A DNA stretch of 63,945 nt, counting the filler, from Atractiella rhizophila (lineage: Eukaryota), in the NCBI GenBank assembly GCA_021432655.1. It is 14 parts of 12 records of this genome, joined end to end, with 100 filler letters (N's around TTAATTAATTAA, not from the genome) between each part and the next. Parts side by side here need not be neighbours in the genome. Positions count along the whole stretch, not along the records: positions 46,803 to 53,101 come from MU272310.1; 13 more parts are not named here. One strand, 5' to 3'. Of the stretch, positions 6,390 through 57,460 are shown one piece after another (positions within the stretch are counted from its first letter, which is position 1; each line of letters opens with the position of its first letter). The notes beneath the pieces are model-generated. The model worked only from the letters and a program-made list of their open reading frames with translations. It ran no database searches and was not told the origin of the DNA. The position numbers and the translations under genes are program-made.

Positions 6390-6489
6390 NNNNNNNNNNN
6401 NNNNNNNNNNNNNNNNNNNNNNNNNNNNNNNNNTTAATTAATTAANNNNNNNNNNNNNNNNNNNNNNNNNNNNNNNNNNNNNNNNNNNN
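6390..6489. other. Artificial contig-joining spacer N44-TTAATTAATTAA-N44 (first of 13)
   Basis: Identical 100-nt blocks at 6390, 12871, 19343, 25800, 32240, 38662, 40294, 46703, 53102, 54660, 57862, 60172 and 62520. The 12-mer puts stops in all six frames, and genes are cut at these blocks. Ordinary scaffold gaps are at about 8469, 22518, 43111 and 48122. Confidence 0.98.
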
Positions 6490-12513: not shown

Positions 12514-13296
12514 GATGGTAGATGTCACTTCTTGATGCACCGTCTACAGTGGAGGATAGATACTGTTCATAAAGGTGAAAGATGTGCAGAGATAGAGTTC
12601 AGGAAAGGAAGAGATTAGGTTCAATGCAACCAGGATCACAGAATCCGGCCGCTCTGACACAGTGGCAAATGATAGGAACTGATTTGTTGAAAGTTCAACT
12701 TGACGTCTGCGTCTGCGTTGCAGTAACAGTATTGATCTGGAATGTACCTTCCCAACCACGTCAACAAGGTCTACCACATCATGACACGGCTCACATTGAG
12801 GAAGAGTGGAAAAGTCTGCGGAAACTGTACAAGCCAGTCCGAGGTTGGTGAGCGCACCACGAATGGCGCCNNNNNNNNNNNNNNNNNNNNNNNNNNNNNN
12901 NNNNNNNNNNNNNNTTAATTAATTAANNNNNNNNNNNNNNNNNNNNNNNNNNNNNNNNNNNNNNNNNNNNCGGAGGGAGCATCGAAAGCTGTTTGTGGCG
13001 TAATTGAAGGGAGTAAGGAGAAGACGGAGTGTGGAGGGAGGGATAGGTGGTGGGTCAGTGCTGCTGTGAGCTTGCGCAGGCTTGCGCATAGTCACATGAT
13101 GGGAACCTTAAATGATGCCATGGGGGTACTCCACTTGGGAATATCGAAATTCTGGTTCCATCTGGTTCCACTATCAGTGGTCGGCAGCCTCCGGCCCACG
13201 CGCCTGCTTATAAATGTCAACTTGAACTTGAAATGTTGATCGTCCTCCTCAAGGGATCTGTCAAAAGGTGTCGAAATCCTAGACGGAAAGCAAAAA

Positions 13297-19342: not shown

Positions 19343-19442
19343 NNNNNNNNNNNNNNNNNNNNNNNNNNNNNNNNNNNNNNNNNNNNTTAATTAATTAANN
19401 NNNNNNNNNNNNNNNNNNNNNNNNNNNNNNNNNNNNNNNNNN

Positions 19443-22345: not shown

Positions 22346-23713
22346 TTAAGAGAGCATCAATACGCTGCTAGGCGTCAATCCCAACTCTCCAAGGCTCTTT
22401 GACATCTCACCAGCCGAGAACACCTTTCTCGGGAAAGGAATAGCTAAATTGCAGCATCACCAACATCATGAGCGCTATTGAAGAGAACAACGCAAAGAAA
22501 TCTCTTACAAAACTTGANNNNNNNNNNNNNNNNNNNNNNNNNNNNNNNNNNNNNNNNNNNNNNNNNNNNNNNNNNNNNNNNNNNNNNNNNNNNNNNNNNN
22601 NNNNNNNNNNNNNNNNNNNNNNNNNNNNNNNNNNNNNNNNNNNNNNNNNNNNNNNNNNNNNNNNNNNNNNNNNNNNNNNNNNNNNNNNNNNNNNNNNNNN
22701 NNNNNNNNNNNNNNNNNNNNNNNNNNNNNNNNNNNNNNNNNNNNNNNNNNNNNNNNNNNNNNNNNNNNNNNNNNNNNNNNNNNNNNNNNNNNNNNNNNNN
22801 NNNNNNNNNNNNNNNNNNNNNNNNNNNNNNNNNNNNNNNNNNNNNNNNNNNNNNNNNNNNNNNNNNNNNNNNNNNNNNNNNNNNNNNNNNNNNNNNNNNN
22901 NNNNNNNNNNNNNNNNNNNNNNNNNNNNNNNNNNNNNNNNNNNNNNNNNNNNNNNNNNNNNNNNNNNNNNNNNNNNNNNNNNNNNNNNNNNNNNNNNNNN
23001 NNNNNNNNNNNNNNNNNNNNNNNNNNNNNNNNNNNNNNNNNNNNNNNNNNNNNNNNNNNNNNNNNNNNNNNNNNNNNNNNNNNNNNNNNNNNNNNNNNNN
23101 NNNNNNNNNNNNNNNNNNNNNNNNNNNNNNNNNTTTCTCCTTCTTCTCCTCTTCCGTCAAAGGCTTCACCTCCTCTGTGGACTCTTCAAATTGATCGTGG
23201 CCAGATTTATCACCATGATAAGATGCTAGGGCGGTGTTTCTGTGCACCACAAAATGTCATAGGTCAGAACAAAATATCTTGACTGTCAGAAGCAGAAGGG
23301 ATCAAGATGGCCCACCTAAAGATCTTGCCACATTGCAAGCACTTTAACGACTTCGCTTCTCCCCCAGCAGCCACTCCTGCCAGAGCTTCGTCCTCGTCAT
23401 CTTCATCTTTCTCCTCTTCTTGCAGCTCAGGGTCATCTGCATGTGCAAGCAGCCCTATAACACACAACCCACATCGTCAGCTTTACGCGTTTCGAACAGC
23501 CATTGTTAATCAGCGGAGAGGGATGCTTACAGTCGAGTGCAGCTTGAGTACCCGAGTTTTTCGTCTAAGCGCAATTGCAAGACACGTAAGTCATACAAGA
23601 CAGAGCATGGAGGGATAGAATGGCACCTGCTTCAACGCTTTCTTGGATTTGGCCTCAGAGAAGCCCATCGACGTTAGCTCCTTCAAAGCGAGATCGTGCG
23701 CTGGATCCGACAT
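22346..23713 (-). CDS. UBA - C2H2 - UBX domain protein (UBXN1-like), middle in gap
   Basis: LTSMGFSE (UBA), SLKCLQCGKIFR..ALASYHGDKSGHDQFEESTEEVKPLTEEEKKEK, and C-terminal FPRKVF..SLGELGLTPSSVL (UBX). Confidence 0.88.
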
Positions 23714-25374: not shown

Positions 25375-25935
25375 TCCATTCTCCCATTCTCCATGGCTGC
25401 TGAGAAACGAAGAACATTGATGTAATACAATGCACGTTCAAAATGGCTCTGATTGCGTATTCTAGTTCCTATGCCTATGAATGAAGACGAGGCTGACCTC
25501 GATCCATATCAATAGAGTAGTCATGGTATCTGTACGGTAATTTCAGCCGTTTCACGCTGGCAATAAGCGAACGCAATGAATCGTAGTCCAAGGTCCTTTC
25601 TCTGCTCAATGTTGATGTGTTGAGAGACGAACGATGATTTGTTCAATCTGAGTGTAAGGCAGATTTGGCAGACTATCTCATTTTTCTCGTATCGACGGTG
25701 TCGGCTGTTGTATGCTTCAGGAAAGTCGAGATCGATGAAGCTGATCATTCTGGAGCTCAAATGACCAACTGTCAGCTTGTCGTTGTCGTTCAATCAGACN
25801 NNNNNNNNNNNNNNNNNNNNNNNNNNNNNNNNNNNNNNNNNNNTTAATTAATTAANNNNNNNNNNNNNNNNNNNNNNNNNNNNNNNNNNNNNNNNNNNNC
25901 TCCTTCTCAGTCTCAAACGTTTCCGAACCTGCAGC

Positions 25936-32239: not shown

Positions 32240-32739
32240 NNNNNNNNNNNNNNNNNNNNNNNNNNNNNNNNNNNNNNNNNNNNTTAATTAATTAANNNNN
32301 NNNNNNNNNNNNNNNNNNNNNNNNNNNNNNNNNNNNNNNGGGAGAGGTGAGATGAATGAATTCGAGAGCGCTGCTCCAGAAGTTTGAAATCCCTAAAAAG
32401 CAGGCCCAATATCACAAAAGTTGCACCAGCTCCTTTTGAAGAAATAATAAGGTGAGGCAGAGCATGGATGGCGGATTAAATACGAGACCACGACCACTTC
32501 CGAGCGTTGTCGATGGGTTGATTGACTGTTCGATTATGAGGTGACTAATAACCCAGTCCTTTTTCAAAAAAGGTTGGTTCCAGCAGATGAGTTTCGAAGC
32601 GAATCAATAAGGTATTTGGCGAGAGGGGAGCCATGTATGGGGAGAGGTAAATTGTTGACAACAGACACAGAAAGAAGTTGCTCCTCTCCTCTCTTTGGAT
32701 CGTTGTTTGGGAAAACGATCGATAAACGACTCTTGGCGC

Positions 32740-38661: not shown

Positions 38662-39820
38662 NNNNNNNNNNNNNNNNNNNNNNNNNNNNNNNNNNNNNNN
38701 NNNNNTTAATTAATTAANNNNNNNNNNNNNNNNNNNNNNNNNNNNNNNNNNNNNNNNNNNNCCCAAAAAAATGCCAATAATGCATGAAATTGTAGCTTAA
38801 TCCTATACATTGTGTGTTTACTTTGCTTCTTCTTTGTTGGGTGAGGAAGGGTTAGCATTCGTATCATTTCCTGTACGCAGTGAAACAATCTTGTTCCGTT
38901 TCTATTGAAATTCTGTGTATCGCGGAAATAATATCACAGACTTGAAACGATATTATCTGAAAATGAGCACAATTGGGTACACTTCGGTGCGCACGACAGA
39001 AAATGTGTTTACGAAATGAATGACCATGCACCCAAGCAGAACCTCTACGTCAAGTTCAGTGGTTACAGGCTTCAGCGCTTCAGCGATCATTGCTTGCCCG
39101 TTCTCACTTTTGATCCGCAGTCCACATTTGCGTTGTTCACTCCTTATCAGACAGTGACTGTGTCCATTGTGCAAGGACCGAGAACTAGACAGCAGAGCGA
39201 CCCAGCCAGAGTAAAATGAGTATACTATATCTCTCCGCGCTGGGAAAGGCCGCGCTGGAAGAATCGTGGTAGTCAAGATAGATGGAAAATGACGAAAATT
39301 GAGATAATCATGATCCTCAGCTCTACATTCTGTCCATCTTGCAAAGCACCACGGCTTGGCCAAGCTTTCCTGTGACAGGAGGTTTGCCAGGTATGAGCAG
39401 CAAGACGTAGCGCCAGCGGAAACACAACCAGATTGCATCACTGACATCGCTCATATTCGCACATTCCGCCAGGATGTATCACTGGAATTGCCATTGGGTG
39501 CCATATAATTCAACATTCAATGGATCGATAAGATGGCAAGGTGCTTGAAAAGCTGGTGTTGATGATTTGAACGTGAATTCCACCCCAAATGTTACAACCC
39601 GCCTTTATCTCGTTTAACTCATACCAACATGGTTAACAAATCTCCAACCCATGACATCGACATCCACTACCCATTTCATTCCGCCTGAAATCGTCACTCC
39701 GTCGTTTCTCACGGCAGCCGGCGACGGAAGCAAACTAGGCGCATCATAGCCAACGACCAACAAAACCAACCAACCGACGACCTCCCTCGCTCACTCAACC
39801 TGCACTTCCAAGCGAGCGCC

Positions 39821-41589: not shown

Positions 41590-43660
41590 ATGTCAAGCAC
41601 AACAGAAGAAAAGTCTACTGCGTCCACCGACGCTCAACTGCAGTCTCAACTGGAAGAAGTCAAACCTACAGCTGAGTCTCAACCTAAAGAGCAATCTTTG
41701 AGGCCATGGTTGGCTGTCGCTGGAGCTTTCTTGGTCCAATTTTGCACTTTTGGGTATGTCAACGCCTTTGGAGTCTTTCAAGGTGCGTTGTTCCCTCTCC
41801 TTATTGCTTTGATCGCAACCGTGTTGATGGACGCCGAAGCGTACTACACCTTTGATCAGCTGCGTGGATACTCTTCGAGTGACATTAGCTGGATAGGTTC
41901 AGTGCAGGTGCGTTTCCCGCTCCACTATCCTATACCATGAGACGAATGAATGCTAATTCAGAGTAAAATCAGCTATTTCTTCTTTGGGTCCTCGCTGTCG
42001 TATCAGGCAAATTATTCGACAAAGGTTACTTCACTTGGCTCTTGCTCGTCGGCTCAATCCTTCATGTGCTCTTGTGCGTCCATTTCCTGACACTTGACTT
42101 TATCTCTCTTCTGAAGCTCAACTAAGCATCCTGGTTCTTTCCGTCTGTGACACATACGCCGAAATTTTTGTTGTTCAGGCACTGGGACAAGGGGTACGGC
42201 GCTTCATCGCGTAGAGTGGAAGAATTACTGACCTTTCTTTCAGTTGAGCAATGGACTACTCTACCTCACTTCTCTCGCCTGCGTCTCCCGCTACTTCGCA
42301 CAACATCGAGCCTTCGCGTTAGGCGTAGCAGTGACAGGGAGTGGATTAGGCGGCGTTTGTTTCCCCAGTTCGTCCATCCATCCCCATTCCCTCACCCAGC
42401 TCATTCCAAACCAACTGATGTTGACGCAGTTTTGTTGAACAACTTGATCAAGGAACATGGCTTCGCGGAGGGAGTCAGAGCAAGCGGTTACCTCGTCCTT
42501 CCCTGCCTTGTTCTGGCCAACATCCTCATGCGGAACCCAGTCGAGGGTCACGCTGGATCGCAGATCCCTGAAGGGACGTTAAAGAGCGTGGTCTCCGATA
42601 AAGCAGCCTTGTTGAGCGCTGGAGGATGCTTTTTCGTCTCCTTGGGATACTTCATACCTGTAAGTCCATGATTCTATAGATGTAAGCTCAGGCTGATCCA
42701 CTCTTATGTCAGTTCTTCTATCTCCAAGTCTTCTTCCGATTACACGGGATAAGCGAACATCTAACGTTTTACTCCGTATGTGCCTAACCTATTTTCAAGA
42801 ACCGTTTGATGGATGAAAGGTTAACAGCTTGCGATATTGAACGGGGTGAGCGTTATAGGACGCTTAGTACCAAACTTGCTCGCCGACAAGTAAGCAACTA
42901 CCTCTTTTGTCATGTCGTTCACTGATCCTATGGTGTTCAAGGCTGGGAGTGATCAACCCTAATCATCCCTATCGATATCGCCACTGCAGCCATCACCTAC
43001 GCTTGGTCAGTGGCCCAATCTCCTCGAAAGTATTGCTGAGATCTGACAATGTTTTACGTTTGGATCAGGGTGGCATGTACAAAGACGGGTTCCGCGATCA
43101 CCTTTTGCGTNNNNNNNNNNNNNNNNNNNNNNNNNNNNNNNNNNNNNNNNNNNNNNNNNNNNNNNNNNNNNNNNNNNNNNNNNNNNNNNNNNNNNNNNNN
43201 NNNNNNNNNNNNNNNNNNNNNNNNNNNNNNNNNNNNNNNNNNNNNNNNNNNNNNNNNNNNNNNNNNNNNNNNNNNNNNNNNNNNNNNNNNNNNNNNNNNN
43301 NNNNNNNNNNNNNNNNNNNNNNNNNNNNNNNNNNNNNNNNNNNNNNNNNNNNNNNNNNNNNNNNNNNNNNNNNNNNNNNNNNNNNNNNNNNNNNNNNNNN
43401 NNNNNNNNNNNNNNNNNNNNNNNNNNNNNNNNNNNNNNNNNNNNNNNNNNNNNNNGGTCGAATTCTGAGTAGCGCAAATAACGATTACTGGAGTCTTGCA
43501 GTGTGGTCAGGGGTACGTTGGTCACTTCCTAGCTTCTCTTATCACCGCAGTCCTAATGATTTATCGTTTGGGTGAGCAGACAACATTATTGTTCTCGAAC
43601 GTACTGTTCTTCTGGGCGAGACAGTTGGAAGTGGGGAGAAAAGGGACACAGCGAGTGTAA
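41590..43660 (+). CDS. MFS monocarboxylate-porter (Mch-like) transporter, part in gap
   Basis: WLAVAGAFLVQFCTFGYVNAFGVFQ, SSSDISWIGSVQ, SGKLFDKGYF, YFAQHRAFALGVAVTGSGLGG, GRLVPNLLAD. Confidence 0.92.
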
Positions 43661-43846: not shown

Positions 43847-45005
43847 TCAACTTCTCACATCTCCTAACCACTCTTCAAGCGGCATGACATCCTTCTTCTC
43901 CCTTACTTCGTCCCACACCTTTCTCGCACCACGAGCTTCGAACTGGATCCAATTCGGAGACGTATCCAGTAGCGGATTGTCAAAGTCCTGCACTTTAAGC
44001 TGAATATTCATTTCCGTCGATGTTTCGGTTGGATGGAGAGATTGAGGGTGAACGGCGAATTTGAGAGATGAGGAGTATTCGATGATGCTGTTAGTATGTG
44101 GAGGGACGAGGAAAGTGGAGTTATGAGAATGGTGTATCCTCAACTACGTCCATCAATGATCGATTAAGGTCGACTAAGAGGGAAGAGGAGTATAACTGGG
44201 AAAGATTCGCACCTGTCTACAATCTGCAAACAAAACGCAATCCTTCAAACCATGAACGATCACGCTCCCCTCCGTCACTTTCAATACCACCAAAGATCTC
44301 TCAACGTCCTGCATATGCACGCTTCCAAACTCTTCCTGCTCCAATCCTACCACACACCTCTTCAAATCCGAGATCAAGATGCTACCTTTATCCGGCGATT
44401 TGGAGGAGATAGAAGAGAGGGAGAGGTAGGAGTCAGAGTGGGAGGATATGTGGAGAGTGGAAGGGGGGAGGGAAGAAAGGTCGAAGAGTTTCTGTGGAGG
44501 AGTTCCTGGTGGAGTGTGTGACGAAGGAGTTGGAGCGCTCGGAGTGCCTGTGGAAGGTTTGGTAGAATGGGATCTCTCCTTATCCTTCGGTTTGGTCCCC
44601 TTGAAAGCAAACTTTGACTTCTTCTTCTTCGCAGCGTTCAAAGTATCCAATTCCTTCTCGAGCTCTTTGATCCGCTGCACCAGTCATGATCGACCGCATC
44701 ACCTTCCTCTGACTGACGAGTGAAGGGAATGACGGCTCACATTCTGGAACTGGGCCTGGTCATATTTCGTCAACGCGTCAAGAGAGTGCGAGAGCTCTTT
44801 CTCCAATTCTTTGAGTTCCAGTAATAGATCCTTAGTGTCTGTATCTGTGTCAGACAAGACGGCGGATACGCGTGCGCCCACATCTGTCCGTAAACATTCC
44901 TGATTAGAAGATGGATAGATTGACACTAAGAAATAGGAAGGGAGACAAACCTGCGATCTTGGATGAGAGGGATGAGGTGATTTCCGGTGAGATGGTCGTG
45001 GACAT
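43847..45005 (-). CDS. TBCC: Tubulin-folding cofactor C
   Basis: ALTKYDQAQFQN, KKSKFAFK, beta-helix GSILISDLKRCVV..GSVIVHGLKDCVLFADCRQ|LRIHHS..SIIEYSSSLKFA, VQDFD..TSPNW. Confidence 0.88.
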
Positions 45006-45487
45006 CTCTGGTTTTCGTTACACCTTCTCCCTTGATTTACGGCTCACTAGCTGGAGGAGAAGTTAGGTCAGCTTCATTTCATGGCTGCTTTGCTTTGCAT
45101 ATGGAGATGGAGAGGTATGCGTCGGCACCGACTCTAGATCCACCATCAAGCAGGTAATACAACAAAATGATCTGTACATCGCACGAGTACTATAGATTAC
45201 TCCGACCACATCAAGGTTTATGCAGCATACACATGTTGATTTACCCAGTGCAAGATCAACAATACGGAGACATTGATGTTAACGTTAAGGAGTTATAAGT
45301 TGCTAATATGCGAGAACAATGAAGCAGTTTCTACAAACAGACTCACGATCACAATCCAGCACAGTCACAACTGCATATTCACTGCAAACAAAAAACCAAA
45401 AACCATCAGATCATCACAACTTACCCGAAGGTCATATTGAGTCATCGGGTATCCCGCTCTATCATATCAATCGCCGCAGTGTTATGC

Positions 45488-46702
45488 ATGCTTCCCACAT
45501 TCTCATCAGCTTTTCGGCGGATGTCAGTGTCACCCAAGCGACCACTGATAGCGATCATCGGCACGACAGGGGTAGGGAAGAGCCAGCTGTCCATCCAGCT
45601 GGGGACTTCTCTCTCTCATGCCCAGCTGCTCTCCAAAGACACTGACCAAATCGAAAACCAAGAAGCAGAAGTGGAAATCGTGAATGCGGACGCGATACAG
45701 TGCTACGAGGGGTTCCCCATCTTCACGAATAAGCTGCCAGTGCATGAGAGGGGCGGGTTGAGGCATCACTTGTTGGGTGTGTGGGAGCCAGGGAGGGTGG
45801 GAAGGGTTGGGGAGTGGACGGAGGAGGCGGAGCGCGAGGTGAGTAACTTTCACTGATCCCTTTGCTATTGTGATATTTTCTTATTCATTCATCCTGTAAT
45901 ATATATGTAATCTCATATTTTCTCTTGCGCAGTAGATATCTCACATCCACGCACGGAGAAACATCCCACTCGCAGTCGGAGGCACATTCTACTACCTTCA
46001 AAACCTCATCTTTGCCGACCGTCTCATCTCCGCCCCTCGCTCCCCTCCGCCTTCTCCGCCTTCTCATCCTTCTCCTCATCCCTCTTCTTCTGTAGCATCC
46101 GTCCTCGATCCGCTCCCACAGCCCCTTCAATGGCTCATCCACCTCCTCCCTACCCTCCCAAACATTTGTACCTCCAAATCCTTCGACTCCGACTTCCCCA
46201 CGCACGTGTTCGAAGAAAAGAAAGCCGAGCTCAGAAAGATCCTATCAGAAGTAGGACCGCGGGCTGGAGTCGAAGTCGGGACGTCTAATCTGAACAAGAA
46301 TCTCAAGGAGGATAAGGATGGGCAGGATAGGAAAGAGGGCAGGAAGGAAGGACCGTTGGAAGCTGTGGAACTCTCCCTCCTCCTCTATCACTCCCTTTCT
46401 GTCCTCGACCCCCTCACTTCTTCTCGTCTCCATCCACTTGACATCCGAAAGATTCGTCGATCCTTAGAAATCCTGCTTAGCACTGGACAGACACAATCCA
46501 GTCTGATTGCGAAACAAGAAGCCCGAGAGTCGAATGGAGGAGGGGACGGGAGTGGAGGGAGGAGGGAGGAGGGGAGATATAGGAGTTTGGTGTTTTGGGT
46601 TTGGTGCGAAGAGGAAGAGTTGGAGCGGAGGTTGAGGGATAGAGGGGGAGAAATGAGGATCAATGGATTGAGGAAGGAGTTGAAGGAGATGAAAGAGCTC
46701 GT
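45488..46702 (+). CDS. MOD5: tRNA dimethylallyltransferase, 3' truncated
   Basis: IAIIGTTGVGKSQL, EIVNADAIQCYEG..TNK, HHLLG, VGGTFYYLQ, HPLDIRKIRRSLE. Confidence 0.93.
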
Positions 46703-47652
46703 NNNNNNNNNNNNNNNNNNNNNNNNNNNNNNNNNNNNNNNNNNNNTTAATTAATTAANNNNNNNNNNNNNNNNNNNNNNNNNNNNNNNNNNNNNNNNNN
46801 NNCATGAATGATTTGGTGTTTTCAAGTATCGTAGGAATGGAGAAGGGAACTAGATGGCGATCTGCTTCTGAAGTGAGGCCGCCATCACGTTACACAAACC
46901 CGATGCCTTAGAACCGAGGCATCTTATCGTCAGAGACAAGAGACATCCGCCAACGTTTCGATGTCAACTTGGGCCGACTGAAGGCAGGGCTCGATCGCAA
47001 CATCATGGGAGGTAGAACAGAAGTTTCAGGAAGAAGATCATGCCACTAGAAGAAAACGCCACGATTGCATTACGCACTTGTTTATGCCGAGTTCAGTCTG
47101 TTCAGAAGCGAAGAAGGAGCAGGGAGAACTCCAAAAGTTTACTTGAAATCGACTGCCTTGAGACAAGGAACTAAAGAAGTACAGGAGACATGGCGGGACT
47201 AGGAGATCGACGCTCAACGGACCGCGATTCGGTGCAAATTCAAGCGGATAATGTTTCACGGCGTACGACAAAAGTCAACTTTTCCCTGAGCAGTTGAAGA
47301 TCATGCACGACCATGAGTGGACTAACCACCGACAGTAATAACCGCTACACAAAGAACAGAACAGAGACACGCTTGCGCGTTGAACCTACATGCAAATCGA
47401 GGACGACTGAGCAATCAAGAAGCTTACCTGCTCACACGTGACTACGCACCATCCGATTTGCCTCTCATATACTACTGTCCTAGCTGTGTTTATAACTCCC
47501 CATCCCCTAAGCTCAGTGCAAGCATTGAACATCTCCTGCCATTTGGGGTACGTGCGGCGCGTACGTTTTTCTATTGCGGTCACCTGATTCTTGAACGCCA
47601 ACACAACATTCTCGATCCTATGTTGTATCTTACTGCGAATTTGCAGAAGTAG

Positions 47653-49421
47653 ATGGCCAGGACCAAGCAGCGAACATCAGCACGAACAAAGAACGTCGCA
47701 GTTGAAGAGGAGGAAGAGGATTTCGACGTGCGTACTTCTATTTCCTTTATCTTTCATCGGGGACAGTGTCCCATTACATTGGTCGGAGAGTTGATTTGCT
47801 GTTTGTGTTTGGTGTCGTGAAGGACATTGTCAGTCTACCAAATAAGAAACAAGGTGCTTCTCCCTTTCGTTGCGTCCTAAACTTAAATCTGAAGTTGTGA
47901 GCGCGTAGAGATGGTTAAAAAAACCACTTCTCGCGCTAGCACCACTGCTGCAACAGGCAACACGACTCGAGGAAAGAACGGAGGAAAACGCGCATTGTCT
48001 GTGCTTGAGGAAGAGGAAGAGGATGGATCTGACGCCTCCGCTGGTGCTGGAAAACGAGGAAAGAGTGTTGGAGCGTCAAAGAAGCGGAAAGTGAACAAGG
48101 AGGAGGGAGGGATGAGTGACANNNNNNNNNNNNNNNNNNNNNNNNNNNNNNNNNNNNNNNNNNNNNNNNNNNNNNNNNGAGGAAGAATGTAGTCGGGTAC
48201 GTCATTTCAATCTGTTACTTTGGAGCGGGAGGATGAAGATGGAAGGATGCAGATTAAGGAGGAGCGTGATAAGGCGGTCGAGGAGTACAGGCAGAAATGG
48301 GAGAACTCTAAGACGACAGCAGACGAAAGGGCAGATCGTTCGTCCTCCTTCTACTTTCTAATTGAACGACTGAGAGGAACTGGCGCGAACTTAGGCTCTA
48401 AAGCCATGATAGCCGAGTACCAAAAGCAGATTACCGAGCAGCAAGCAGTCCTGAACAAGTACCAGTTGGATAAGGAGAAGTCTCTTGACGCATCGTTGGA
48501 GAATATACATCTCTTTGGAGTGGATCCTAAGAAACATCAGGCTCTGGTGGATGAGTTGGAGAGGCTCAGGTCAGAAAAGGGCGATAGAGGAGAGGCTGAG
48601 ATAATGAAGCGAGAGCTAAAAGACCTGAAAGATGAGTGTGCGCCATTCTTTACTCCTTGCTCCTGCACACGTGTGTTGAGGTGGATCATTGGTATAGTAT
48701 CACGTACGAAGAAAGAAGAATCAACGAAGTCAGAGGAATGTGAGTGACCTCTTTCTCGCACAAGCGCGGATTTTGAAAAGATTCGACGACCGCTTAGTGC
48801 AACGTTTGAGGAAAGAGGATGCCTCGAGGACTGAAGAAGGTAACTGTTCTACAGATTTAACTCTTCCAAGTCTAAGAACCATCACAGTTCAACAGCTCCG
48901 CCTCGAACTAGACGCCGAAATCCAACAACACAAGCTCACTCAACAGAAATTACAAACTTCTCGTCCAATCAACGTCAACCCAACCACCCCTACCAGTGCC
49001 TTCGCCGGCCTTGCTGCTTCTTCATCTTTGCAGTTATATGAGAACTTGACCTGCTTGTCGGTCCTGTCGGTGAAGGATGAGACGATTGATGATGTCTTTT
49101 GGAAGGTCCACGAATGTCTCCTATCAGATTCAGGGGGACATCAACTTTGTACGCCGTTCTTCATCCCTATCATTTCTGCCATTTCTTGCTTTCCGGCTTA
49201 GAACATACTAAGTTCTTTGCAGCTTTTCACTTCCAACTCCGCCATCGTGCTGTACAAGATGATTGGGGGTTCATTCCGAAGATCGATTCCAGAAGGGATA
49301 CGAAACTCTTGAAGGTTTTGGACGAGTCTCCAAATTTTAAGGAGCCATGTTTTTCGGAGCTGCGCAGTTGCCAAAGTTCTGGAAGCAGCTTTGGGGGATA
49401 ATGAACAAGAAGTCAAAGTGA
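47653..49421 (+). CDS. CSM1: Monopolin subunit Csm1/Pcs1-like protein (coiled coil + C-terminal RWD-like domain)
   Basis: Long coiled coil, then LQLYENLTCLSVLSVK..VHECLL..FHFQL..FIPKIDSRRDTKLLKVL. The tail MFFGAAQLPKFWKQLWGIMNKKSK* needs one extra base near 49345. Exon 1 is MARTKQRTSARTKNVAVEEEEEDFD. Confidence 0.7.
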
Positions 49422-50063
49422 TGTCGTCTGGATTTGTCCCTTTTCTGTGGATTGGATTTTGTGTTTATGACGGAGGTTCGCTGTTTCGTTGTTGTGGTAT
49501 TACATTGTTTGCATTTGAATCACATCACGTTTAGGTGACAGCGTTTCCTCTCCCTCGTGCCCAGTCGTTGGTTGTGGCTCTAACAATTGTTCAACAGTCA
49601 GGAGAAGTTCCTCATCCCAGTTCACACAACCTCTGGCCACCGAAAACGCAATGAAACTGGAGGCTGGGAGTGACTGGGGAAGCTCACATTATCAGTGACA
49701 GTTCGTTTAATGCATCGCTTTGTTGTTCGGTACCTGTGTCACCATGGCATCTTCCTCCACGGTTTTTCCTGAAGCTGATTCTCTCAGACGATCTGCTGCC
49801 TCTGCTCAAATTGCGAAGGTTGTGAAGCCAAGGGAAGCTGGATGGGGTGCGATCGTGCCGTGCGCCAAGCAAAATCGTAACCAGCTACTATTCTGCCATT
49901 AGGCTCACCGCGGTCTCACCGGCTTCCCTGCACAGTCGAGTGACAGAGAGTCCTGAGCCGGTGTTGACTTCATTCATTGTGCAGAGGGCATTTGATGAGG
50001 ACTCGGAACGGCGACATAGGTGCTCAGTCGAGAGCCTTGAACTTGAAACATTGTTTTTTATTG

Positions 50064-50074
50064 GTGCATAAAAG
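50064..50074 (+). promoter_or_regulatory. Shared TATA-like element GTGCATAAAAG upstream of both Cys-rich paralogs (second copy about 51029)
   Basis: Same 11-mer about 60 nt before each ATG in otherwise dissimilar upstream DNA. Confidence 0.5.
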
Positions 50075-50127
50075 CATTGAAGCAGTCTCACCTGTTTCAT
50101 CCTCTAAAGACTGACGAAAAACGAATC

Positions 50128-50738
50128 ATGCTCTCACGAACTCTCGTCGCATTTTCTCTTGCCATCTCGGCATTCGCCGTACCAACTGTACATCTCCCAT
50201 CATATCCCTGGTGCATGCTAATTGGTGGTATGTTAGTTCACATCAGAGCAGGCATCTGCACTTGTCAAACGGAGCTGTCCCAACTGTTCCTCCGTGAGTT
50301 CTTTGCATCCACCTCTACCTCCTCTTAAAGCTAAACACCGAGAACACACCAGTGCGTCGACCGTTGTGATGATATGAACAAAGACAATGATAAAAAGAGT
50401 GTGCGTCCTCTCTCTTCTTCATCCTTCCCGACCTGATAACATTTCAGTGCGCGATGAACTGCATGTTCGTCTGCGTTTGCGATCCCGAAATGGAGAAGAC
50501 AAAGACTGTCGGGGCCTATCTGCCAGGGTATGACACCTGTGAATCACGGAGCACCTCCTTCTACGACGCTTGCACAGGAATGTTGAAGATCGGGACTTCA
50601 GCCATTTCTCAGAATTCAGGTTCAAAATCTTCTACCAGCAACACAGTTTATGGCGCATTTTTGCCAGGCTACGAAACGTGCGAGTCCAGAAGCACGTCTT
50701 GGTATGATGCTTGTACTGGGAAGCTGAAGACGGGCTAG
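50128..50738 (+). CDS. Small secreted Cys-rich protein A (151 aa, 4 exons)
   Basis: Exons 50128-50187, 50237-50293, 50353-50400 and 50448-50738, all phase 0. Signal peptide, LVKR site, 8-Cys domain, two 2-Cys repeat modules. Confidence 0.88.
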
Positions 50739-51092
50739 TTTGTACAATTTTGCTTTGGATACTAGTAATACATACTGCAAAAAAAGCCAAGTCTGCGCTC
50801 CAAAACGATGAAGAGTCGGTGGCGAACAGTTAGAATTCAATGAGACGCCGAAAAGCTGCAACAAAGCAACATCGTTGCGGTCAGTGCCAATAATAGTAAC
50901 TGGCCCAGGAGTGTGCCAGTCACCCAGGACTGGCCAAGAGATTGAACCCGAGGAGAAAGGCGACACATCTGACCCTTTTGGCTATGAAACAGCACAGCGC
51001 CGGTGTAGCCTTAGTACCCTGGTTTGTAGTGCATAAAAGGGTCTAAGCCCTTTTTCTTCCCATCCCTCCCATTCCGTCCAAATCCGCCCGAC

Positions 51093-51597
51093 ATGCTCTC
51101 CCGAAGCCTCGTTCTCTTCTCTCTCGCCATCTCGGCGCTTGCCGCACCAGCTGTACATCTTCTCTCGTATCCCTCCAACTGTCGCTCACTTCCTCGTTGA
51201 TTAGTTCACGTCGGAGCAGCAGGATTCGTCCCTTGTTAAGCGGGGAGGCTGTCCCGACTGCTCTCCTGTACGTTCTATCCATCGACGCTCTGCTCATCAC
51301 TGAGAACAAACCAGTGCATTGATCGCTGTGATCAACTGAACAGCGACTATAACAAAAAGAGCGTGCGTCGTCTCCTCTCCTTTCTCCATTCCAGCCTTAT
51401 AACATGTATTGCAGTGCGCGATAAGTTGCGTCCCCCTTTGTGTCTGTGGTCCCGACAACACAAACATGAATACTACGACGACGACGATGACGAAGGGTAC
51501 CGGTTCCAAGGCGGCGTTTCTTTCTGGTTATGAGACTTGTGAATCACGGAGCACTTCCTTCTACGACGCCTGCACAGGCCAGTTGAAGATCGGTTAA
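51093..51597 (+). CDS. Small secreted Cys-rich protein B (117 aa, 4 exons), paralog of A
   Basis: Exons 51093-51152, 51205-51267, 51315-51362 and 51415-51597. Same intron positions and Cys spacing as A, a Thr-rich linker and one repeat module. Confidence 0.88.
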
Positions 51598-52409
51598 GGT
51601 AATGTTTTTTAACATGCCCATATTGCTTGCTGGCTCAGACGAGGCTCAGGTAGAAACAAGGAATTAATTACAAGTTTTGAACCGTAGCCGAATGTAATCC
51701 TCATTACTCTCTTCTAGTTGGAAACAACCTATTGGAGTAAAAACAATCCGCAAGAGCTCCAACGCAGAAAAATAAGCCATGGATGTAAAACGAGTTTTCA
51801 GAAAAGATTTATTTGCAACACACAAGTGGAGTGATTGACCCTGCACCTGTCTAGAGATTGAGACCTTTGTAATGCGTGAAGACCGTTTCCCGGACATTCA
51901 GGGCAATTCACGAATCGAAGCTTCCGCACTCCGCACCTTTCCGTCAGCGAGCTACCGAGCAATCCAGGCCTGAAGCTTGTCGGCGGATTCAGCGCTTTCT
52001 CTTTCACGACAAATTGGTCAAGCACCGCCTTCTTTCTTCTTTCATGATACAGCAGACAAGCTTGACCTGACCGCAGACGAGTCTCGTAGCCCAAATCCCT
52101 TTGCTTTGCTTGGTCATGAGGGAACAAATACGCACGCCTCCTCTTCAATCTGATGCCTTCTTTCTGCACCCTTTGACGCATTTTAACTACAAGACGAAAT
52201 GTACACCTCTCCTCTGTTCCCCTTTCACGCCATTAGTTTCGAACTCGATGTAACTGATTTCCCCTCTGTCCAGTCGTTGCGTTGTCTCCAGTACAAGAGC
52301 GGACTAGATTATTTTTCGGCATCTTCCCAAGTTGTCCATACAAACATCGACCGTCTCACTACTGTCCTCCCTGAGGCTTTAGGACGCGTCCCCTTCTCTC
52401 ATAAGCATT

Positions 52410-53101
52410 ATGGTGCCAGGAAAACAGGAGAAAAAAGTCTTTCGCGCCACAGGTATACCTTTGCGGACGTGCGTCTCCCCCACTTCCTGCTGCTTCCTCA
52501 TCATGCAAGCCATAACCAGGAATTTGACTGTTTTCCGGGTACATATAGCTCCTTCCTCGATCTATGGCAGCAAATTGAGCTCGCCGAACCTCTCCCTGCT
52601 TCTTTCGCGCGTCTTTACAGCCTGCATTTACAGAAATTATCCAACCCTGCTTCTGCTTTTCCTCCTCCAACTCCCACGTCCAGGCAGGCATTGAAGTGTG
52701 GAACTGTAGTGATCGATGGAGATTCAGATAGGAAGGTCAAAGTAGATGAGGTGGAGGCGGAACTGGCACTGCAGGTATCAGAGTGGTTGCAGCTTGATGA
52801 GATCGAGAGCTTGGTGCTAGTCAGGGGAGTAATGAAGAAAGGAGAAGAGTTCAAAGAGGGGAATAAGGTCGAAGTGGAGTTGTTGGAGAGACTTCTCATG
52901 GCTTGGGCAGAGGAGAGACTGGCTTTGATACTTATCATCCAGAACATATTAAGACACGGTAAGTTGATTTCTCTATCTCTTTAGGTGTTGGGTAGGACGT
53001 GATCGCGAATGGAATGCTAGCCGATGACGCGGACTCAGACCTGAACGAATGGGCCGACTCGCTCCTTGGCGAGTTTCTCGTTCCCTCTACCTATCCGTAC
53101 A
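52410..53101 (+). CDS. NUP188: Nucleoporin Nup188-like, 5' part (start uncertain)
   Basis: LSNPASAFPPPTPTSRQALKCGTVVIDG..ELALQVSEWLQLDEIESLVLVR..WAEERLAL resembles the Nup188/Nup192 N-terminus. Confidence 0.6.
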
Positions 53102-53813
53102 NNNNNNNNNNNNNNNNNNNNNNNNNNNNNNNNNNNNNNNNNNNNTTAATTAATTAANNNNNNNNNNNNNNNNNNNNNNNNNNNNNNNNNNNNNNNNNNN
53201 NCCGTCTCCCTACTCTTCGATGAGACCGCAAGAGGAGGAATAAACGCCACTTTCTAAAAATGCGTGCCATTCTTTGATGTGGGAAAGTTGTGCCAGCTGT
53301 GTGGTGCTTTGTACGAAGTTCCACCTCCTGCATTGACTGCATTCCGCTGTGAATGGCAGAAAGTTAATGTCTCTTTCAAGATTTGAAGGAATGCCTGTCT
53401 TTGTCAAGCAGAAGAAATGTGTCCCAGGGACTGAAACATGCGCTCTTGAACATATCCAACACTGCAAACCTATCAAAGTAAACGACATAAAGACACCTAC
53501 ATATTTCTTAGTTGCTCCTCCAACGCTCAAGGCGTGCTTTGCTCCGAGGCTGAATTGCGATTCCCAGCTAATCGACGACAGCTCTCAGAATTGCCCAAGA
53601 TCTATCCACCTTTGAAACTATCTAGTCCTCTTCTCAGAACTCCGTAAGGGCCGCCTTATCAAGTCGAGGAGCTGGGGAGTGGCAATAGAGAGTTGAGAGT
53701 GACGAAATCGCGGCCGGAATTCGCCTCGATCATTCAAAAAAGTTTCTTAATCTCTTTCTTTCGAAAGCAATAGCACTTCACTGTTTCAGCTGTTCTGCGC
53801 GAGATAAGCAATC

Positions 53814-54659
53814 ATGGCGCCTTCCACTCGTCTCCTGCTGCTCGACCTTCCTCCCTCTCTCACCGTCTCCTGGCTGAGGACACACATCCTCTCCATCCCA
53901 TCTCTCCTGCCCTCCTCGCTCACCGACCTCAAACACCTGCCCAAGCGGCACATGGCCTTTGTCGGCTTCAAGAGCGAAGGAGACGCTCAGAAGGCCTATG
54001 AGTGGATCGGTGGGAGCTGGATAGGTGGAAGGAGGGTGAGAGCGAAGTGGGCAGAGGATGTATGTCTTTCCTCTTTCTTTCCTTCTTGGAAGCGTTGGGT
54101 GTGAAAGGTGTGATTTGTTGAGCGATGTGTTGATTGGATTATGTGGATAGATTGTGGATAAGCCTCCTGAAGGAAAGAACAAGAAACGCAAACGTTCAAC
54201 AGCGGATGAAGGTGAAGAAGCAGGGAAGAAGAAGTACGCAAAATCCTCAAATTGGAAAACTCTCGCTCTTCCCAACCCTTCTATTCCATCTACGTCTGCC
54301 AACGCCAATTCTGCATCTACACCCACCACCACCACTGCTCCTGTACCTGCTGTGGAGGAGGAACAGAAAGCGCTGGATTCGGACGAAGAAGAGGAGTTGG
54401 AGAGACAGCGCGAACTGGAGAATGGGATATCCGACACTCAATGGCTCCTTTCTCATCGCGCTCGTCATTTATCTCCTCCTCCATCAGCGGATCCACCCTC
54501 TGCAGAACCACCGACAGCAAATCCATCAACCTCCGAGTCTACGTCGTCTGCAAAACCTGCGGGAGACGTAGAGATGGTCGACGCTGCGGCACTGGAAGTG
54601 GAGAAGAAGGAAGGAGAGTACACGAGATTGTTCTTGCGCAACCTGCCTTTCTCTACAAC
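53814..54659 (+). CDS. MRD1: Multiple RRM rRNA-processing protein, 5' part
   Basis: RRM1 STRLLLLDLP..RHMAFVGFKSEGDAQKAYEWIGGSWI, SSNWK, GISDTQWL, RRM2 start TRLFLRNLPFST. Confidence 0.85.
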
Positions 54660-55046
54660 NNNNNNNNNNNNNNNNNNNNNNNNNNNNNNNNNNNNNNNNN
54701 NNNTTAATTAATTAANNNNNNNNNNNNNNNNNNNNNNNNNNNNNNNNNNNNNNNNNNNNAGAGAGGAGGCAAAGAGAGGAGGGGAGGGGAAGATCGGAGC
54801 GAGGAAGGAGCGGATGAGAGATTTCGAGAAGGGAATCAAGGATGGAGAGGGATTAGGAGCTGTAGACGAGGAGATGGATGACGATTGAACAGTCTACATC
54901 GACTTGGGTGAAATACATCCTTGCTCGTCGGTTCATTGCAATTTTGTGGGCACAATGCTTATGGTTATCATAGTACAGATGTTGGCATATTCTACATTGC
55001 ACCGTAATGGAATGCACCCATGACATGCCCATCCCTGGCATCCAAA

Positions 55047-57460
55047 CTAGGAGTCCTTGAAACGTTCGTTCCATCCCTCTAGTGATTGCATAGTGTCAGT
55101 CAACCCTGAAGCGTCGACGAACATATACGCCAGCTCGCAAAAAGCGAGGTGGATAAGTTCCATCTCGTCGTTCGAAAGCTGGCACTTCATCAGGATATCT
55201 GGATCCCAACCCACCAACGCGAACTGTATAGCACGAAGGACAACAGGGTAAGGCGTGTGCTCCCCCTCTTCCGGTGACTGTTCCCAATTGGACTCATGAA
55301 GCATGGCCATGGAGATGAGTTGAGGACTGACAGCAAACACAGCCCTTAGCAAGGCTAGCAGACTCTTCATATATCCCACTACCATCTCCTCACTCTGCTT
55401 CAAGATTTCTTCCGTCACATTTCCCATCTCTTTCTGACGTCCAACCAGTTCGCGATGCAGCGAAAACACTGTTCGTACGATTTCACAATACCCAATCCCA
55501 AAATCACCTCGAGGGGTATCCATCCAACCTATTGACTTTGACGCAGTTCCGGAGCCATTAGGGAAGAGGACGTCTAACGCGCCAGTGGTACAGAAAAACG
55601 AATTCATGATGCTTGAGAGGTCCTGTATTGTATTCGATACTTGCGTCCAGAAATGCTGCACACGTTCGATAGTAACATTGTTCAGCTTCGATTTCTCTTA
55701 ATTTGCGCATCAAACCGTTGTCAAACTGAAAGCGAGAAAGCCGTACGAGACGTCCAATTGTTTACTAGCAACCTGTACAACACACCAATCCGTACTCCCA
55801 GCAGCAGAGCTATCGGATATCTCGAGCAAATCTCAGATGAGCACTGTGGCTGGAGCCCTACGAAAACTTCGAGCGGGAGACTTGAGCGGGACATGAAGAA
55901 CTGAACATCATCATCGGTAATTAATAGTCGGTCGGTTGTGCGAGAAGAAGAAATCGCATCTCGGTTAAACAGGTAGCAGGAAACTGTGTCGTACATCGGC
56001 TGTGACAACTGTGGTACTATGAGATCCTACGCTGGCTTGATTAGTATGAAGATAGCTTCTGACGGCGCGGCTCACCAGCGAGAGCGTACGCCAGTGCTGG
56101 ATTGCAAGGATCAAGAAAGGACGGCTGTCCTGGCTGTCTATTCCAAACAGACGAATTAGAGGTTGCCTTTGCTCTGTTTCTGAGGAAATAAAATAGTTTA
56201 CGAGAAGAAAATTCAACCAGAAGCAGCGCCGCTAAGCTTCCAAATGTGCTCTTCCTCAACACGCCACTCCCATCAATCATAGTTGTTCCTTTCCTTTCAA
56301 GCACTTCGCAAATCGGCTGTCGAAGCTGACCGTAGATGTAGTTCGAATCCTTGCCACGAGTATCTCGGAAACATGGGACGTCAGACTGCCCTAGGATGAG
56401 AGGATGATTTGTTATTCTTGCACCACAAGCGGAGATGGCTAACTCGCATCCCTTTATTCCATTAGCATTGAAAGGAGATGACGAAGAAGCTCACCTCTGC
56501 GACGTCGGGAGGGAACTTTGGTTCGAACGGCCCAAAGAGAGTTTGTAAAGGTGTCCCTGCCTACGTTCGAGTTGGATTGCTTTCGCTGGAGGGAACAGAA
56601 ACTAACGGCAATGAATAGTAGTTCAGCGGGCATGATCAATCGCGCCACTTAGTCCCAAAAATGAGTCAGCCGCTGCATCGACAATGTTAGGAACATAGAA
56701 GTGAAATGACGAAGCAGATTTCATAACAATCAAACTGGAGGATCGCCTGATTCCGTGACCTCCTTCCTGTGAATTTTAACAAATACGGAGAAAAGTCTGC
56801 CTTTCAGCGACAGATGACGTTGTACGGTACGAAAGACAGACAAGAGAATAGAGCACATACTTTCGCTCAAATGCCCACTCAATCCTCTCCACAACTCATT
56901 CCGAAACATTCTCTCCTCCCCTTTCCTTGTTAAGATTTGCAAGACAGTGTCGTCATCCCTTTCACTACCAAACATCTCACTGTTCACCGCACCGATGTTT
57001 GAATGAGCGAATTATACGGATGGGGAAGTGGGACCGACCGAGCTTTCGCGATCCTCTTCCCTCTCTTTGACAGTCCAGTACTTCCAGTCCGGTACCGCAA
57101 GAGAATTTGCCGTTCCTCTGTAGGAGAGACAGAGCATATTAGATTTTGTTGTACACAAACAGCGCAGGGCTCATTTAGGGCATTTAATTCGGGGGCAGAC
57201 GATACTGAGGAGGTGGTGGTCGAACGGCGAATGCAACGAATGTGTCGAACTAGACCTGTCATGAAGTATGAAAGCTGAGGGAAGTTTATTAGCTAGCAAA
57301 TGTGTTACAATGGTCCTACTCTCATTTCATTCCCAGTGAACAGGAAAGCACGGAGAAGTTGACGCACACAGGATCGGTTAAGACGGTCCCGTTTCTTGCT
57401 ATTCGCTGATGGCGGGTTCGAGGTTGTGGATGTGCCTTTGACAACAGTAGACCGATTCAT
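55047..57460 (-). CDS. Zn(II)2Cys6 transcription factor, multi-exon
   Basis: Spliced KKRDRLNRSC|DHC|LVRHIRC-x22-CAVCVQQNLIC followed by GKRIAKAR. Downstream exons join through canonical introns into a helical regulatory region. Exact 3' end uncertain. Confidence 0.78.

Follow-up and report, generated by a model that had tools for sequence, protein, structure and literature searches.

Orphan tandem genes of Atractiella rhizophila that probably encode Kex2-processed, small secreted cysteine-rich proteins

The window analysed here, 63,945 nt assembled from 14 joined parts of the genome of the basidiomycete Atractiella rhizophila (assembly GCA_021432655.1), contains two adjacent genes, A and B, both located within the part derived from MU272310.1 (46,803-53,101; positions count along the window). 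We consider it probable that A and B are old tandem paralogues whose products, small secreted cysteine-rich proteins processed by Kex2, constitute an orphan family. Proteins of this kind are known; the architecture is new, combining a putative four-disulfide CX3C hairpin with a constrained disulfide-loop module that occurs in variable copy number.

Gene structure and public annotation

Gene A (50128-50738) and gene B (51093-51597) lie in tandem on the plus strand, separated by 354 nt, and each consists of four exons that, when spliced by coordinates, encode 151 and 117 amino acids, respectively (Table 1). All six introns are bounded by GT..AG, are in phase 0, measure 47-59 nt (49, 59 and 47 nt in A; 52, 47 and 52 nt in B) and fall at equivalent points of the aligned proteins, which reproduces the matching intron positions described in a first-pass annotation of this DNA; the peptide strings quoted there were likewise recovered by splicing. 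The start codon of each gene is the first in-frame ATG past an upstream stop, located at 50044 in the case of A. In both genes, the second and third introns are positioned directly 5' of a Cys codon, exon 1 comprises exactly the 20 residues of the predicted signal peptide, and exon 3 exactly the fourth Cys and an 11-residue loop. Module boundaries coincide with exon boundaries in both genes. Identity between corresponding introns of A and B is 0.73-0.85 under a gap-tolerant alignment (shuffled means 0.59-0.63, shuffled maxima 0.69-0.79), and a comparison of intron with exon identity was uninformative.

The two genes also share an upstream 11-mer, GTGCATAAAAG, which begins 64 nt before the ATG in both, as previously noted. 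There are two matches in the window against an expectation of 0.03, and at least two matches were found in 0 of 100 shuffles. The 11-mer is TATA-like and may be a core-promoter element.

When exon 4 of A was used as a protein query, two NCBI proteins of A. rhizophila were retrieved, each named hypothetical protein and both located on one contig of 170,130 bases. The first, P0002 (117 amino acids), is letter-for-letter identical to model B, so that the three B introns are already part of a public gene model. The second, P0001 (105 amino acids), matches exon 4 of A with 100% identity and corresponds to gene A from an internal Met in exon 3; it supports intron 3 only and is missing the signal peptide and propeptide together with Cys 1-4. 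The pair had been called unrecognised, which is half true: B was annotated as a hypothetical protein, and A in shortened form. On comparative grounds, the 151-residue model of A is better supported than P0001, because exon 1 and the propeptide, both missing from the latter, are identical to B at 15 of 20 and 10 of 12 residues, because the proportion of non-synonymous differences (pN) in these regions is below that of synonymous differences (pS; pN/pS 0.14/0.45 for the signal peptide, 0.09/0.70 for the propeptide), and because the splice sites are canonical and the shared 11-mer stands at equal distance from its ATG. If these models are right, one public annotation is corrected, that of a gene left without its signal peptide, its propeptide and half of its Cys module.

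N-terminus, propeptide and mature proteins

The N-terminus of each protein carries one Arg and a hydrophobic core of about 14 residues, with a maximal Kyte-Doolittle 9-residue window of 2.36 (A) and 2.57 (B) starting at residue 5. By inspection, small residues occupy positions -3 and -1 (AFA in A, ALA in B). These features suggest a signal peptide for the endoplasmic reticulum (ER). The segment that follows is an acidic propeptide of 12-13 residues that includes FTSEQ and ends in LVKR (residues 29-32 in A, 30-33 in B). The earlier description of a signal-peptide-like N-terminus followed by a propeptide ending in KR is therefore borne out, and can be made more precise, as Leu is at P4. According to the available text of PMC8528282, Kex2 prefers Leu at P4, Lys or Arg at P2 and Arg at P1, and these preferences define the K2PP effectors; the pro-domain of A and B lies in the first half of the protein and has the KR, RR or LxxR type of ending used to recognize that class. 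LVKR should accordingly be an optimal Kex2 site, at which cleavage is predicted.

Cleavage there would leave mature proteins of 119 (A) and 84 (B) amino acids, containing 12 and 10 Cys rather than eight. Both are acidic, with an isoelectric point (pI) of about 5.0 and net charges of -2.6 (A) and -1.3 (B); the 8-Cys module, with a pI of 4.6-4.7 and a net charge of about -1.3, is acidic as well. Each protein contains two dibasic pairs, the KR of the propeptide and a KK in the putative hairpin loop.

The eight-cysteine module

The propeptide is followed by a 33-residue module in which all eight Cys, amounting to 24% of its residues, and 20 of 33 residues overall are identical between A and B. The spacing C-x2-C-x2-C-x3-C-x11-C-x3-C-x3-C-x-C, taken from the first-pass annotation, is present in both proteins, the tripeptide KKS directly precedes Cys 5 in both, and the module has a pN of 0.20 and a pS of 0.79.

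Structure prediction with AlphaFold 2 (AF2) on the two-sequence alignment yielded only two helices, each covering one CX3C motif of B (residues 40-47 and 52-62), with block values of the predicted local distance difference test (pLDDT) of 58-61. Comparison of this whole-protein model to the PDB with Foldseek returned 34 matches at E <= 10, the best with an E of 0.6. Among the 32 matches listed, those at ranks 1, 2, 3, 6, 7, 11 and 34, seven in all, are helical hairpin peptides of the CX3C type, namely the vicilin leaders of Ara h 1, Pis v 3 and Ana o 1, as well as Tk-hefu and Nigellin-1.1. The Foldseek mode used also scores residues, and matching Cys therefore add to this ranking. The AlphaFold and Foldseek check proposed at the outset thus yielded low-confidence helices over both CX3C motifs and no significant fold match, results with which a hairpin of opposed CxxxC motifs is consistent; the model makes an alpha-hairpin fold for the 8-Cys module a lead only. 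Plotted at 100 degrees per residue, the Cys of the two halves (four in each) span arcs of 120 and 160 degrees, which is compatible with, but does not prove, a one-faced disulfide ladder.

The C-terminal module and selection

Beyond a Ser/Thr-rich linker (combined Ser and Thr fraction 0.29-0.33), the proteins end in a module of 26 amino acids that contains a C-x10-C loop and terminates in Gly. It is found twice in A and once in B, and 21 of its 26 positions are invariant across the three copies. The two units of A differ by 18.5 synonymous changes at 17.5 synonymous sites, that is, to saturation, and by 6.5 non-synonymous changes at 60.5 sites; strong purifying selection therefore acts on the peptide. 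By these counts, the C-terminal module is the most constrained and best-conserved segment of the proteins. The earlier protein models were right for the 8-Cys part and stopped short of this one.

In the comparison of A and B, no region has a pN equal to or above its pS (0.08-0.20 versus 0.45 to saturated), contradicting the proposal that the family is diversifying. The pattern indicates that selection is purifying, and that the duplication is old and its copies conserved.

In the last 57 nt of the unit (50538-50594 in A unit 1, 51538-51594 in B), B and A unit 1 are identical at 51 of 57 positions, while B and A unit 2 agree at 37 of 57; outside this tract, synonymous sites are close to saturation. 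The B unit is thus closer in DNA to A unit 1 than to A unit 2. This suggests either that an ancestor had two units, one of which B later lost, or that B and A unit 1 underwent gene conversion, and the data do not separate the two.

Modelled alone from the three-sequence alignment, the C-terminal unit adopts a one-turn helix and a short beta-hairpin in the best model, which has a mean pLDDT of 71 and blocks of 80-86 over the loop.

Search for relatives

We searched 1.84 billion representative proteins with a HMMER profile built from the alignment of P0002 and P0001 (E <= 0.001) and recovered no relatives beyond these two. Word-index searches with exon 4 of A and with P0002 also retained only P0001 and P0002 (two of seven and two of 14 candidates, respectively). 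In Pfam, searched at E <= 10, P0002 matched Cys_box (E 0.028, 14.9 bits, cutoff 29) and TIL (E 2.6), both below cutoff, and neither P0001 nor the exon-4 pieces nor the C-terminal units had a match. Accordingly, there was no Pfam match to hydrophobin, CFEM, CBM1, hevein (CBM18), CS-alpha-beta defensin, RALF or GASA/snakin at this threshold, in agreement with the earlier remark that the Cys spacing does not fit the first five of these. Hydrophobins require a CC dipeptide; neither A nor B contains one.

PDB sequences searched at E <= 10 gave no match for P0002 or for the unit profile, and a single one for the combined P0002 and P0001 profile, the copper chaperone Cox17 (E 2, 11.5 bits), which is not significant. 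In the ESM Atlas the best feature score was 0.77, below the stated noise level, and structural matches had template modelling (TM) scores of at most 0.50 and belonged to unrelated bacterial families. A tblastn search of the window with both spliced proteins revealed no further copy at E below 0.05; the remaining matches (E 0.058 to 9.7) are short, dispersed stretches, of which the best two lie within or between A and B.

The lineage restriction proposed for the family therefore holds as far as protein databases show, with two matches among the 1.84 billion representatives, and the strong match to a characterized family that would have removed its novelty was found neither there nor in Pfam or the PDB. 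Remote relatives of a 33-residue Cys-rich module could fall under these thresholds, and genes with exons of 48-63 nt are easily overlooked by annotation; orphan here means orphan in protein databases. The literature that we found on A. rhizophila consists, in its available text, of community surveys or taxonomy; none of it was on small secreted proteins of an Atractiella genome, and we found no literature linking hairpinins with fungal effectors.

A model for the secreted pair, and its alternatives

In the model that we favor, the product of exon 1 would act as an ER signal peptide, and the acidic propeptide would be removed by Kex2 in the Golgi after LVKR, leaving an acidic mature protein. 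Its central CX3C-x11-CX3C segment would adopt a helix-loop-helix stapled by a ladder of disulfides, which the outer four Cys would extend. This part would be followed by the variable Ser/Thr-rich linker, probably glycosylated, and by one or two of the 26-residue C-x10-C loop modules at the end of the protein. Purifying selection is strongest on the C-terminal module, which we take to be the most likely binding surface. As to the role of the proteins, our best guess is that they would act extracellularly, like the K2PP effectors, as stable binding proteins where the fungus meets plant or microbe.

Several observations weigh against this model. The signal peptide call is based on hydrophobicity and inspection. 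The AF2 model of the whole protein is poor (mean pLDDT 45, predicted TM score 0.28), as is that of the ESM Atlas (pLDDT 0.41), Pro occurs inside both putative helices of B, and none of the 34 Foldseek matches in the PDB reaches E <= 0.001. For the C-terminal unit, the other four of the five models score 51-61, and a fold search of the PDB with the unit model gave two rows only, both RidA with E above 6, and no fold match. Finally, conservation rests on two sequences from one genome, which can be neither dated nor placed ecologically.

A bolder extension, which we regard as improbable, would make the 8-Cys module the first alpha-hairpin (CS-alpha/alpha) mini-protein from a fungus, with a four-disulfide ladder, fused to a 26-residue disulfide-loop module, itself new, with valency set by its copy number; this second module would be the ligand of a receptor of plant roots or microbes while the endophyte colonizes Populus.

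The alternative that survives best, though still unlikely, is that A and B are antimicrobial or toxin peptides directed against competing microbes, with a hairpin acting like that of the antifungal alpha-hairpinins of plants. The CX3C-Xn-CX3C core is the defining alpha-hairpinin motif, and several alpha-hairpinins are antifungal, according to the available text of PMC7191063; the non-significant fold matches described above also lean toward this group. The acidity of the mature proteins and of the 8-Cys module argues against a classical cationic membrane-active antimicrobial peptide, positive charge being among the general properties of antimicrobial peptides in the same text, and this weakens the antimicrobial role initially proposed. 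A prepro layout is common to many fungal antimicrobial peptides. Nonetheless, A and B have no sequence similarity to antimicrobial peptide families in Pfam or the PDB, and an antimicrobial role leaves the conserved C-terminal module unexplained.

A role as secreted, alpha-hairpinin-type inhibitors of proteases is less probable still; the inter-helix loop with its conserved Lys-Lys would then present P1 to trypsin- or subtilisin-like host or microbial proteases. BWI-2a/b/c, VhTI and C2 are trypsin inhibitors with a reactive site between their CXXXC motifs (PMC7191063, in its available part), the KKS before Cys 5 is kept in both paralogues, and P0002 has its weak TIL match. That match, however, is at noise level and far below cutoff, the loop is otherwise poorly conserved, and there is no structural support for an inhibitor; moreover, the reactive site of BWI-2a/b directly follows Arg in the text of PMC7191063 available, whereas the Lys-Lys of A and B is close to a Cys.

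We assign the same low probability to a peptide precursor, in which the 8-Cys part would serve as carrier for the 26-residue disulfide-loop units, and these, once released, would be signalling peptides or the cores of ribosomally synthesized and post-translationally modified peptides (RiPPs). The unit does occur in variable copy number (two versus one) and is the most constrained segment, and repeat-containing Kex2-processed precursors are a recognized class (PMC8528282, available text). Release by Kex2 is unlikely, because neither the single KR nor the KK in the loop flanks a unit and the units have no other dibasic flanks; furthermore, among the 10 neighboring open reading frame (ORF) fragments scanned (44177-57292) no biosynthetic or tailoring enzymes were seen, and neither RALF nor any other peptide-hormone family matched in Pfam at E <= 10. 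Dikaritin-type tailoring enzymes include, for example, DUF3328/UstYa proteins and oxidases, and a dikaritin-type RiPP precursor was rejected on the same evidence. Mimicry of RALF-like plant peptides by the C-terminal loop, considered for its resemblance, was likewise discarded for lack of a Pfam RALF match.

A metal-binding or intracellular Cys-rich protein, whether metallothionein-like, ferredoxin-like (CX2CX2CX3C) or of the twin-CX3C/CHCH type of the mitochondrial intermembrane space, is very improbable. Its appeal lies in the high Cys content, in the first four Cys, which form CX2CX2CX3C, and the middle four, which form a twin CX3C, and in the weak match to the Cox17 profile. Small Tim and CHCH proteins have a twin CX3C and are made in the cytosol without a secretion signal. 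In A and B, by contrast, the motif comes after four residues and a hydrophobic core that suggest an ER signal rather than a presequence, and after an LVKR that is kept in both paralogues and fits a secretory route; in addition, Fer4, Tim10 and metallothionein had no Pfam match at E <= 10, and the Cox17 match is not significant. These assignments were therefore rejected.

The least probable alternative, that A and B are chance ORF fragments or decaying pseudogenes, can draw on the shortened public annotation of A but is opposed by intact frames with six of six canonical introns, by a pN below pS throughout despite near-saturated synonymous sites, by the conserved putative promoter motif and by antisense ORFs that have no Pfam match.

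Secreted Cys-rich proteins confined to one lineage abound in fungal genomes, and since orphans of this kind are very common in fungi, the pair is of modest, catalogue-type interest. It nevertheless provides a two-member orphan family with a modular design in little-studied root endophytes, the Atractiellomycetes. A structure could show whether fungi independently reached the CX3C-stapled helical hairpin of plant defence peptides, and the C-terminal module is a natural binding candidate.

Genomic context

The 10 ORF fragments scanned with Pfam are not spliced genes; four of them matched a family and six did not (Table 1). By these matches, the assigned fragments flanking A and B in the joined window belong to housekeeping genes. 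Three antisense or adjacent ORFs had no Pfam match, and the pattern of synonymous and non-synonymous differences fits the plus-strand frames; minus-strand ORFs were therefore rejected as real genes.

The window contains 2,187 N. Many occur as paired runs of 44 N that are 12 bases apart, several recurring approximately every 6.4 kb (6390-6489, 12871-12970, 19343-19442, 25800-25899, 32240-32339, 38662-38761 and further pairs), and there are two long runs, at 22518-23133 (616 N) and 43111-43455 (345 N). Several neighboring ORFs are broken by N runs, which look like masking or assembly gaps, not biology.

Table 1. Coordinates of genes A and B, the shared upstream 11-mer and neighboring ORF fragments (positions in the window)
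Feature	Position	Strand	Content or evidence
GTGCATAAAAG upstream of gene A	50064..50074	+	starts 64 nt before ATG
Gene A exon 1	50128-50187	+	20 codons; hydrophobic, signal-peptide-like N-terminus; 15/20 residues as in B
Gene A exon 2	50237-50293	+	propeptide to LVKR (50261-50272), then Cys 1-3 (from 50276)
Gene A exon 3	50353-50400	+	Cys 4 and 11-residue loop of 8-Cys module; contains start Met of P0001
Gene A exon 4	50448-50738	+	Cys 5-8 (to 50480), linker, unit 1 (50517-50594), Ser/Thr-rich linker, unit 2 (50658-50735), stop
GTGCATAAAAG upstream of gene B	51029..51039	+	starts 64 nt before ATG
Gene B exon 1	51093-51152	+	signal-peptide-like N-terminus; residues 1-20 of P0002
Gene B exon 2	51205-51267	+	propeptide to LVKR (51232-51243), then Cys 1-3 (from 51250)
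Gene B exon 3	51315-51362	+	Cys 4 and loop
Gene B exon 4	51415-51597	+	Cys 5-8 (to 51447), Thr-rich linker with one N-x-T sequon, single C-terminal module (51517-51594), stop
Tubulin-binding cofactor C (TBCC)	44177-44683	-	Pfam E 2e-9
tRNA IPP transferase, two fragments	45323-46700	+	Pfam E 3e-7 and 9e-20
Nup192-like	52187-52981	+	Pfam E 6e-5, below cutoff

Comparison with known systems

The K2PP effectors, such as SnTox3, ToxA and SIX1/4/6, share with A and B a signal peptide (predicted in A and B), a short pro-domain with many disorder-promoting residues ending in KR with Leu at P4, and a small disulfide-rich mature protein (as far as the available text of PMC8528282 describes them). K2PP is a layout class and not a homologous family, and A and B have no sequence or fold similarity to the named members. 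A. rhizophila is moreover a root endophyte and not a pathogen, and both cleavage and effector activity of A and B are predictions.

A tentative structural parallel suggested by the models is that with the alpha-hairpinins. In the accessible text of PMC7191063, these peptides are defined by the motif XnC1X3C2XnC3X3C4Xn, in which X is any residue except Cys, and form a helix-loop-helix held by two disulfides (C1-C4, C2-C3); they include antifungal peptides and trypsin inhibitors, and the CS-alpha/alpha fold is so far described there from plant peptides and from scorpion and cone-snail toxins. The central C-x3-C-x11-C-x3-C of A and B is like that of alpha-hairpinins (EcAMP1, MBP-1, Tk-AMP-X, VhTI, BWI-2 and the vicilin-buried peptides) and of kappa-hefutoxins (PMC7191063, same part); AF2 places a low-confidence helix over each CX3C of B, and the best, non-significant fold matches in the PDB belong to this group. 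The differences are substantial. In A and B the motif is embedded in an 8-Cys pattern, and flanking Cys are excluded by the definition cited above; alpha-hairpinins have four Cys and two disulfides, are mostly cationic and are cut out of plant precursors that are vicilin-type or multi-modular (PMC7191063, same part), whereas A and B have eight Cys in 33 residues, are acidic and fungal, carry an extra C-terminal module and show no sequence similarity to them. Neither the PDB sequences nor the 1.84 billion representatives revealed a sequence tie to the plant vicilin-leader or multi-modular precursors, and a shared alpha-hairpinin fold, if there is one, would most simply be explained by convergence.

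For the combination of an 8-Cys module with repeated C-terminal loop modules, we found no described counterpart. Lineage-specific small secreted Cys-rich proteins of plant-associated fungi are short and Cys-rich, carry a secretion signal, arise by tandem duplication and have no outside homologues. A and B belong in this generic category, and are set apart within it by their clean modular exons and by very strong purifying selection on the C-terminal module.

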